A DNA stretch of 32,000 nucleotides, taken from assembly GCF_000698785.1 (NCBI RefSeq), contig NZ_CP007536.1, positions 690,001 through 722,000 of the forward strand. The letters are read 5' to 3'. This stretch comes from Nitrososphaera viennensis EN76 (GTDB lineage Archaea > Thermoproteota > Nitrososphaeria > Nitrososphaerales > Nitrososphaeraceae). Below the pieces are notes generated by a model, which was given only the letters and a program-made list of their open reading frames with translations, did not search any database and was not told the DNA's origin. Numbering within the stretch: position 1 is the first letter of the stretch; each line of letters opens with the position of its first letter. A program made the translations under genes and the position numbers. Positions 22,386-22,593 of this stretch are shown in pieces.

Positions 22386-22593
22386 ATCGATAAAAAAAGT
22401 CCTCGTGCTTGGAAGTGGGGCAATAAAGATCGGAGAAGCAGGCGAGAGCCAGTAAAGCTGTAAAAGGCCTGGCCGCAAATTCGACTACTCCGGTTCCCAA
22501 TGCCTCAAAGCCCTAGCAGAGGAAGGAGTCAAGAGCGTACTCATAAACCCCAACATCGCAACGATTCAGACCGACACCCGCTTTGCAGACAAG
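22382..22593 (+). other. carB: Disrupted 5' region of carB: out-of-frame ATG (22382), conserved N-terminal coding segment (22390-22446), 33-nt TAA-containing insertion (22447-22479), conserved coding sequence without a start (22480-22593)
   Basis: The same frame as the main carB ORF translates as IKKVLVLGSGAIKIGEAGE / SQ*SCKRPGRK / [38 protein letters not shown]. The flanking parts together form the canonical CarB N-terminus. Confidence 0.75.

Follow-up and report, generated by a model that had tools for sequence, protein, structure and literature searches.

A short bulge-helix-bulge intron very probably interrupts carB in Nitrososphaera viennensis and related ammonia-oxidising archaea

The carB locus and its insert in DNA and in transcript-like contigs

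We examined the carB gene of Nitrososphaera viennensis EN76 and the 33 nucleotides (nt) that interrupt it, within a stretch of 32,000 nt from contig NZ_CP007536.1 (positions 690,001 to 722,000), here called the window, to which all coordinates refer. On the forward strand, which carries every feature described below, the open reading frame (ORF) of carA (21159..22385; 408 residues; Pfam CPSase_sm_chain/GATase), the glutamine amidotransferase small subunit, is followed by carB, whose two coding parts are treated here as exon 1 (22372..22446, (S)PRDESIKKVLVLGSGAIKIGEAGE, delimited by translation and by comparison of start regions) and exon 2 (22480..25662, from FDYSG to the stop; 1060 codons plus stop; Pfam CPSase_L_D1/D2/D3, ATP-grasp and MGS on the called product). 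In the carB frame, 22390-22446 translates to IKKVLVLGSGAIKIGEAGE and the FDYSG half resumes from 22480; the insert between them (22447..22479, AGCCAGTAAAGCTGTAAAAGGCCTGGCCGCAAA) splits GEAGE from FDYSG and holds an in-frame TAA. Retranslation agrees with an earlier sequence-only reading of the locus, in which the two motif halves flank 33 nt reading S Q stop S C K R P G R K, and the same reading was right about the inverted repeat GCCAG (22448-52) and CTGGC (22469-73), which pairs in an unconstrained fold, about the duplicated GTAAA(A)G, present in the insert as GTAAAG and GTAAAAG, and about the first canonical start past the stop, GTG 22594, from which the ORF list takes a frame of 1022 residues (22594..25662, GTG start). 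The rest of carB is intact, as had been noted, exon 2 being fully open. Of the explanations then offered, RNA-level excision has stood, while a recent inactivating insertion or artefact and read-through or bypass have not; the conclusion that any rescue must be non-standard, reached because no canonical bulge-helix-bulge (BHB) motif could be folded, gives way to the relaxed motif described below, whose cuts obey the rule known from cbf5.

The insert is present in DNA from two sources. CP103305.1 is 100% identical to the window over 20.8 kb and carries the 33 nt; DNA assemblies of a mock community, 99.99% identical to the window, all carry it as well, and the insert is identical in CP103305.1, the ENA assembly ERZ922836 and the Logan assemblies of ERR1877477 and ERR1877478. 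Of these, all but CP103305.1 derive from PRJEB19901, which comprises DNA metagenomes of a mock community with N. viennensis as its sole archaeon (PMC5691128). Since the insert is identical in all DNA assemblies, an assembly artefact is excluded; a sequencing or assembly error, in whose favour stands nothing beyond the oddity of the insert, is already refuted by these four independent assemblies and by homologous inserts in well over 100 others. The 33-mer occurs once in the window, where shuffled sequence is expected to give no match at up to 3 mismatches, and no second copy, as from a mobile repeat, was found there at 3 mismatches or fewer. Rfam returned no family, either for the whole window at the gathering threshold or for 22300-22620 at E<=10, and ARAGORN found no tRNA in the window, hence no local intron-bearing tRNA for comparison.

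The picture differs in a second set of assemblies. An exact look-up of the carA product returned, besides the DNA assemblies, eight short contigs of 5.1-5.7 kb (SRR29752479, SRR30543889, SRR33649879 and SRR33649881-85), each of which spans the MEDS gene, carA and carB. All eight are 100% identical to the window, from 20210-20445 to 25599-25739, except that 22447-22479 is missing; their junction reads GGCGAG|TTCGAC, and the boundaries 22446|22447 and 22479|22480 are unambiguous. By accession number the eight runs form three separate series. Runs of these series also yield the neighbouring ilvB-ilvN-leuA-leuB operon as a contig of its own, ~5.2 kb long (window 14690-19947), which follows the genome colinearly without any deletion; it was seen in seven runs, four of them belonging to the eight. 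The DNA assemblies continue unbroken across both regions. As operon-sized contigs are what transcriptome assembly is expected to yield, the runs behave as RNA sequencing (RNA-seq). Several of the short contigs begin or end in Illumina adapter, and two papers report EN76 RNA-seq from matching periods (PRJNA1131856; PRJNA1265630, six replicates per condition). From the behaviour of the contigs, the adapters and the matching publications we infer that the eight contigs derive from RNA-seq libraries; carB appears to share a transcript with carA and the MEDS gene.

Two alternatives meet this evidence directly. The first is a polymorphism of the DNA, in which the stocks behind the eight runs would have lost the 33 nt from their genomes and nothing would be spliced. 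EN76 stocks do differ by at least two single-nucleotide polymorphisms (16551 and 16890, in ilvN), and intronless alleles exist in other species; yet CP103305.1, G/G at these positions, and the mock-community DNA, A/A, both carry the insert, whereas the RNA-type runs, A/A or A/G, are without it. With insert-bearing A/A DNA set against insert-free A/A RNA runs, a deletion in the cultures is unlikely. The spread of the eight runs over three series tells against it too, as do the frame-shifting inserts in 44 of 76 relatives whose gene of 1070 codons is otherwise intact, inserts that require removal at the RNA level in any case. Taken together, we hold such a polymorphism to be very unlikely. Both stock differences change GGC to AGC within ORF 16500..16997, the acetolactate synthase small subunit (Gly18Ser and Gly131Ser), and look like laboratory micro-evolution in a regulatory subunit.

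The second alternative is translational, either bypassing of the kind known from T4 gene 60 or read-through of the stop with addition of an 11-residue loop. A hairpin does adjoin the stop codon, and in this one species the 33 nt preserve the frame; most relatives, however, have inserts of lengths not divisible by 3, and the gap is already gone from the transcript-like contigs, which refutes the idea if these are complementary DNA (cDNA). For bypassing in particular the flanking codons do not match, GAG preceding the insert and AAA/TTC following it; the sequence-only reading had likewise seen no matched take-off and landing codons. We give translational rescue hardly any credence.

Fold and conservation of the insert

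The minimum-free-energy (MFE) fold brings the two ends of the insert together. An outer exon-exon helix, h, pairs 22428..22438 with 22485..22495, in the fold as in the alignment; a central helix, H, sets GGCG (22441..22444, the last paired residues of exon 1) against CGCA (22474..22477), as G42-C76, C43-G75 and G44-C74 plus G41.A77, residues being given by the last two digits of their position; and an intron stem, h', joins GCCAG (22448..22452) to CUGGC (22469..22473, CTGGC in the DNA), again in fold and alignment alike. Between them lie a 5' bulge, A-G|A (22445..22447), holding the 5' splice site 22446/22447, and a 3' bulge, A-A|U (22478..22480), holding the 3' splice site 22479/22480, both sites being taken from the cuts in the cDNA-like contigs. 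Each cut falls between bulge residues 2 and 3, exactly four helix positions apart, in keeping with the rule for cbf5 introns (PMC2738675). The four-position H, the bulges on opposite strands and the strict 3-nt 5' bulge between H and a 5-bp h' are those of the relaxed class, in which the loose 3' side also places the motif; it departs from the strict hBHBh' form in its G41.A77 mismatch, in an internal loop before the outer helix and in a 3' bulge that is part of a larger one of 5 nt in the MFE fold. Relaxed motifs are cut only by (alpha-beta)2 and epsilon2 endonucleases, and the type present in Thaumarchaeota is (alpha-beta)2 (PMC5829648). Within the loop, GCTGTAAAAGGC (22457..22468) is a 12-nt expansion of this species only, which forms a small extra hairpin in the fold; it partly duplicates the neighbouring GTAAA, is lacking from close relatives with a 21-nt intron, and explains the duplicated GTAAA(A)G mentioned above.

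Relatives were sought with the CarB residues from FDYSG onward, one genome per species, which gave 80 loci, and three more came from protein hits; the 82 considered here are those in which both flanking motifs are readable. An insert of 21-52 nt stands at the identical codon boundary in 76 of these 82, most often of 26 nt (24 loci) or 21 nt (23 loci). In 44 of the 76 its length is not a multiple of 3, and in 69 the unspliced reading meets a stop within the insert or a few codons beyond. These loci cover 71-97% protein identity, and their exons are open over about 1070 codons. The insert of the nearest relatives is AGCCAGTAAACTGGCCGCAAA (21 nt, AGCCAGTAAA-CTGGCCGCAAA), to which the window species adds its 12 nt in the loop; in other lineages the loop has expanded independently with A/T-rich sequence, bringing the intron to as much as 52 nt, and loop length varies from ~4 to 35 nt. 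The remaining six loci, all metagenome-assembled genomes of Nitrososphaera at 88-93% identity, lack the insert, their sequence GGCGAG|TTTGAC joining the two halves exactly where the spliced contigs do. In a metagenome scan with Nitrosopumilaceae-labelled CarB, 41 of 80 contigs had an insert of 21-22 nt and 39 were cleanly without, and a carB locus from Methanomethylicia had none. Such patchiness is consistent with a nearly neutral element subject to occasional loss.

What these inserts share is structure rather than sequence. In an alignment of 63 sequences, trimmed to the structural elements, 94.7% of cells over all elements are paired, as against 19-46% in slid controls, and the covariation score was reached by none of 500 shuffles. 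The stem h' has 96% of its cells paired and shows double compensatory changes in four of its five pairs (counts taken without correction for phylogeny), with GCCAG/CUGGC, GUCAG/CUGAC, GUUAG/CUAAC, GUCAC/GUGAC and GUCGC/GCGGC among its variants. In H, G44-C74 and C43-G75 are invariant, G42 faces C or U, and the fourth pair, at G41, forms in 25 of the 63, relatives with CGCC or CGUC having a full 4-bp helix. The outer helix is paired in 97.9% of cells. Of 68 unique sequences folded without constraint, 57 gave H, a 3-nt bulge and h' in the MFE structure; the 5' bulge is unpaired in the window and in 59 of 68 unique relatives. The site, the structure and its covariation are all retained across ammonia-oxidising archaea. 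The coding sequence is affected as well. Of 10 possible pairs in the exon-exon helix, alleles with the intron keep 9.8 and those without it 7.0; for Ile, all 48 intron-bearing alleles use ATC or ATT and all six intronless ones ATA; and the Ser codon is TCC or TCT only in the presence of the intron, where TCA and TCG never occur. As synonymous codon choice tracks the presence of the intron, the RNA structure constrains the coding sequence.

Such constancy bears on another reading of the in-frame TAA, that carB is an ordinary pseudogene inactivated by a stop-bearing insertion. The gene has no canonical start, and the complete genome (GCA_024760425.1) has no carB product on record, as a pseudogene might; yet the insert occupies one site in 76 loci of 71-97% identity, its covariation preserves structure, the exons are open and the transcripts are precisely repaired. 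N. viennensis, moreover, presumably grows in mineral medium and would need carbamoyl phosphate for arginine and pyrimidines. An inactivated carB is in our opinion barely credible.

We therefore turn to how the 33 nt would leave the RNA. Very probably 22447-22479 is a BHB-type intron, cut from the pre-mRNA by the splicing endonuclease, with the exons joined by an RNA ligase. The carB gene, intron included, would be transcribed together with carA and the MEDS gene as one RNA, in which 22428-38 of exon 1 would pair with 22485-95 of exon 2, GCG (22442-44) with CGC (22474-76), and 22448-52 with 22469-73; the fold would set a 3-nt bulge on either strand, at a distance of four helix positions from each other. 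An (alpha-beta)2 tRNA-splicing endonuclease would then cut at 22446|22447 and 22479|22480, and an RtcB-type RNA ligase would join the exons, restoring G-x-A-x-E-F-D-Y-S-G and an open frame of about 1074-1085 codons. Typically in this class of introns, EndA leaves 2',3'-cyclic phosphate and 5'-OH ends, RtcB performs the ligation, and the excised intron is often circular. As the intron interrupts the reading frame, splicing is obligatory for the protein, and it would be constitutive rather than regulatory. Removal by another nuclease and ligase, or by self-catalysis, with the BHB-like fold coincidental or otherwise employed, seems improbable to us. It draws on the relaxed motif (G.A in H, the 5-nt 3' bulge of the MFE fold) and on the lack of a matching Rfam family; but both cuts obey the bulge-residue 2/3 rule across a four-position helix, the covarying and invariant elements are exactly those that an EndA substrate needs, a length of 21-52 nt falls well below that of any group I or II ribozyme, and the phylum has a broad-specificity endonuclease.

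Some points weigh against a BHB intron and should be set beside this argument. The covariation counts carry no phylogenetic correction, and the trimmed alignment presumes the proposed boundaries; the unconstrained folds are independent of that alignment, but their flanks were cut at the same boundaries, and the junctions of the intronless alleles presume none in particular. The RNA origin of the eight runs is read from contigs, adapters and publications and not from metadata, and the contigs, being consensus sequences, give no measure of splicing efficiency or of unspliced or circular intron species. The motif is relaxed in its fourth H pair, its 3' bulge and the internal loop before its outer helix; no endonuclease or ligase gene lies within the window; and the missing canonical start of carB leaves its expression incompletely explained.

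Start codon and annotation of carB

The carA frame overlaps the conserved start position of carB by 14 nt. At 22372-74, where relatives have ATG, GTG or TTG, the window has TCG, with no canonical start at the conserved position, although a Shine-Dalgarno-like GGAGGGGAG (22358..22366) ends 5 nt upstream of it, and GGAGG or GGTGA precedes the equivalent codon by 5-8 nt in essentially all 82 relatives. In relatives with an ordinary start the protein opens with M-P-R/K-D/N-E-S/T-I-K-K, and the start lies 39 nt before the GSG motif. Among the 76 intron-bearing loci the codon at this position is TCG in 28, GCG in 15, ATT in 9, ATA in 7, ATG in 7, CTG in 5 and TTG in 5; in the six intronless loci it is always ATG, GTG or TTG. 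Many Nitrososphaera carB loci have no canonical in-frame start anywhere. Gene callers begin carB at GTG 22405, as on the short contigs, where the called product has 1074 residues, and that GTG is not conserved. Editing of the start codon was not seen in the eight contigs, all of which read TCG like the genome. A +1 frameshift fusion of carA and carB was rejected as a general mechanism, loci of the L029 type having stops in both frames just upstream of the start position, as was a start at the out-of-frame ATG 22382 (M-N-R-stop) followed by a -1 slip, for which there is no conserved slippery site; the conserved D/N-E and I-K codons by themselves give rise to both this ATG and its TAA. N-terminal CarB peptides that would discriminate the initiation codon are (M/S)PRDESIK, MKKVLVLGSGAIK and MLGSGAIK. 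It might be imagined, as a long shot, that carB in the genus Nitrososphaera depends on obligatory BHB splicing linked with Shine-Dalgarno-preceded UCG/GCG initiation (or with partial C-to-U editing to UUG/GUG), the intron being selected as a checkpoint that ties carbamoyl-phosphate supply to RNA-processing capacity, and that intronless alleles arose by recombination with reverse-transcribed mature mRNA.

Two observations concern the neighbourhood of carB. CarA ends in a Lys/Arg/Ala-rich extension of ~40 residues (KPREKKEKEKPGKKAVKKKAAAARKKKEGRKVAKR; window 22270-22385), whose length varies greatly in relatives, and across 22270-22385 the carB frame is likewise open and basic. Further upstream, one RNA-type contig (L004:1-60) has Illumina adapter fused to window 20079, 42 nt before the ATG of the MEDS gene, which suggests a recurrent RNA end; considered as a transcription start, this position has its nearest TATA-like element about 37 nt upstream. 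At 20110-12 the contig reads AA against AAA in the genome.

The insert has left its mark on annotation. Besides the empty record of GCA_024760425.1, other gene callers give a truncated CarB of 1022 residues, and among protein database hits P0121-P0240 most close relatives are called at 1019-1043 residues (94-97% query coverage), with a minority at 1083-1088, which indicates that CarB annotations of ammonia-oxidising archaea are systematically truncated at the N-terminus. The truncated calls are short by about 60 residues and lack the first ATP-grasp strand. Further irregularities of carB were considered as second introns and rejected. Of two metagenome contigs, L007 has a frameshift (L007:3480) and L008, the name of which suggests a long-read assembly, several frame breaks (L008:3665-5660), in both cases with no alignment gap; these are probably sequencing errors unrelated to the intron. 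In L057-L060, a TH5895-like clade of Nitrososphaeraceae, an in-frame insertion of ~90 residues rich in Ser, Asn and Asp (~5182-5470, near CarB residue 412) is free of stop codons and so represents a peptide insertion rather than a second intron.

Known archaeal introns and the meaning of the carB case

The closest parallel is the pre-mRNA intron of cbf5, reportedly the subject of work by Watanabe in 2002 and Yoshinari in 2006. Both are very short introns in an archaeal housekeeping coding sequence (16-44 nt in cbf5, 21-52 nt in carB), with mostly relaxed BHB borders cut between bulge residues 2 and 3, in hosts with a hetero-oligomeric splicing endonuclease; both are patchily present, with clean intronless alleles in related species, and annotation mistakes both for a frameshift, for gene truncation or for a pseudogene. 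The crenarchaeal cbf5 introns are indeed mostly relaxed at these sizes (Yokobori 2009, PMC2738675), and none is tabulated for Cenarchaeum or Nitrosopumilus (PMC2738675). Yet carB encodes a metabolic enzyme and cbf5 an RNA-modification protein; the carB hosts are mesophilic or moderately thermophilic ammonia oxidisers of another phylum; the introns share no sequence similarity; the outer helix of carB is a long exon1-exon2 helix with synonymous-site constraint; and endonuclease cleavage has been shown for cbf5, whereas for carB the enzyme is inferred. With carB (Pfam CPSase_L) of Nitrososphaerales as its host gene, the intron falls outside the cbf5 family, whose members sit in cbf5 of Desulfurococcales/Sulfolobales and have intron sequence in common; it is alike in function but not homologous.

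More distant systems resemble it in part. The BHB intron in the 5' untranslated region of the Haloferax volcanii HVO_1309 mRNA (Schwarz 2020, PMC7714728) is likewise an mRNA substrate of the archaeal splicing endonuclease, beyond tRNA and rRNA, but it sits in an untranslated leader, in a euryarchaeon with an alpha2-type enzyme, and has a canonical motif, while the carB intron interrupts a reading frame. Non-canonical archaeal tRNA introns (HBh' or hBH, not at 37/38) share its structural logic, the presumed enzymes and a size range of 11-175 nt, and their relaxed motifs need an (alpha-beta)2 or epsilon2 endonuclease (PMC5829648); the host RNA of the carB intron differs in being a 5-kb polycistronic mRNA without a tRNA body, whose flanking helices are protein-coding. 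A further comparison is with short mRNA introns that are excised and then ligated with a change of reading frame and product, as in HAC1 and XBP1. There, excision at stem-loop sites is independent of the spliceosome and joining is by tRNA ligase (RtcB in metazoa); the nuclease, however, is IRE1 and splicing a regulated stress switch, and nothing indicates regulation for carB.

In the literature searched, from which subscription journals were largely absent, we found no description of a carB intron. One archaeal coding-sequence intron alone, that of cbf5, appears in reviews to 2020 and in reference lists to 2025, and the cbf5 of Crenarchaeota is the only confirmed one in that literature, besides the haloarchaeal 5' untranslated-region BHB intron. 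The carB intron would thus be a second case; it belongs to a different phylum, interrupts the gene of a central metabolic enzyme and occurs widely among ammonia oxidisers of global importance. With CarB absent or truncated in annotation, a systematic error runs through the metabolic reconstructions and protein families of these organisms, and the simple rule found here can correct it. Presence and absence of the intron form a large polymorphism (76 loci against 6, and 41 metagenome contigs against 39), which, together with the effect on synonymous codons, offers a natural system for studying the gain, loss and cost of such introns, for which the culture, RNA-seq and proteome data needed in direct tests already exist. 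Overall, splicing of pre-mRNA by the tRNA-splicing machinery would not be a one-gene curiosity.

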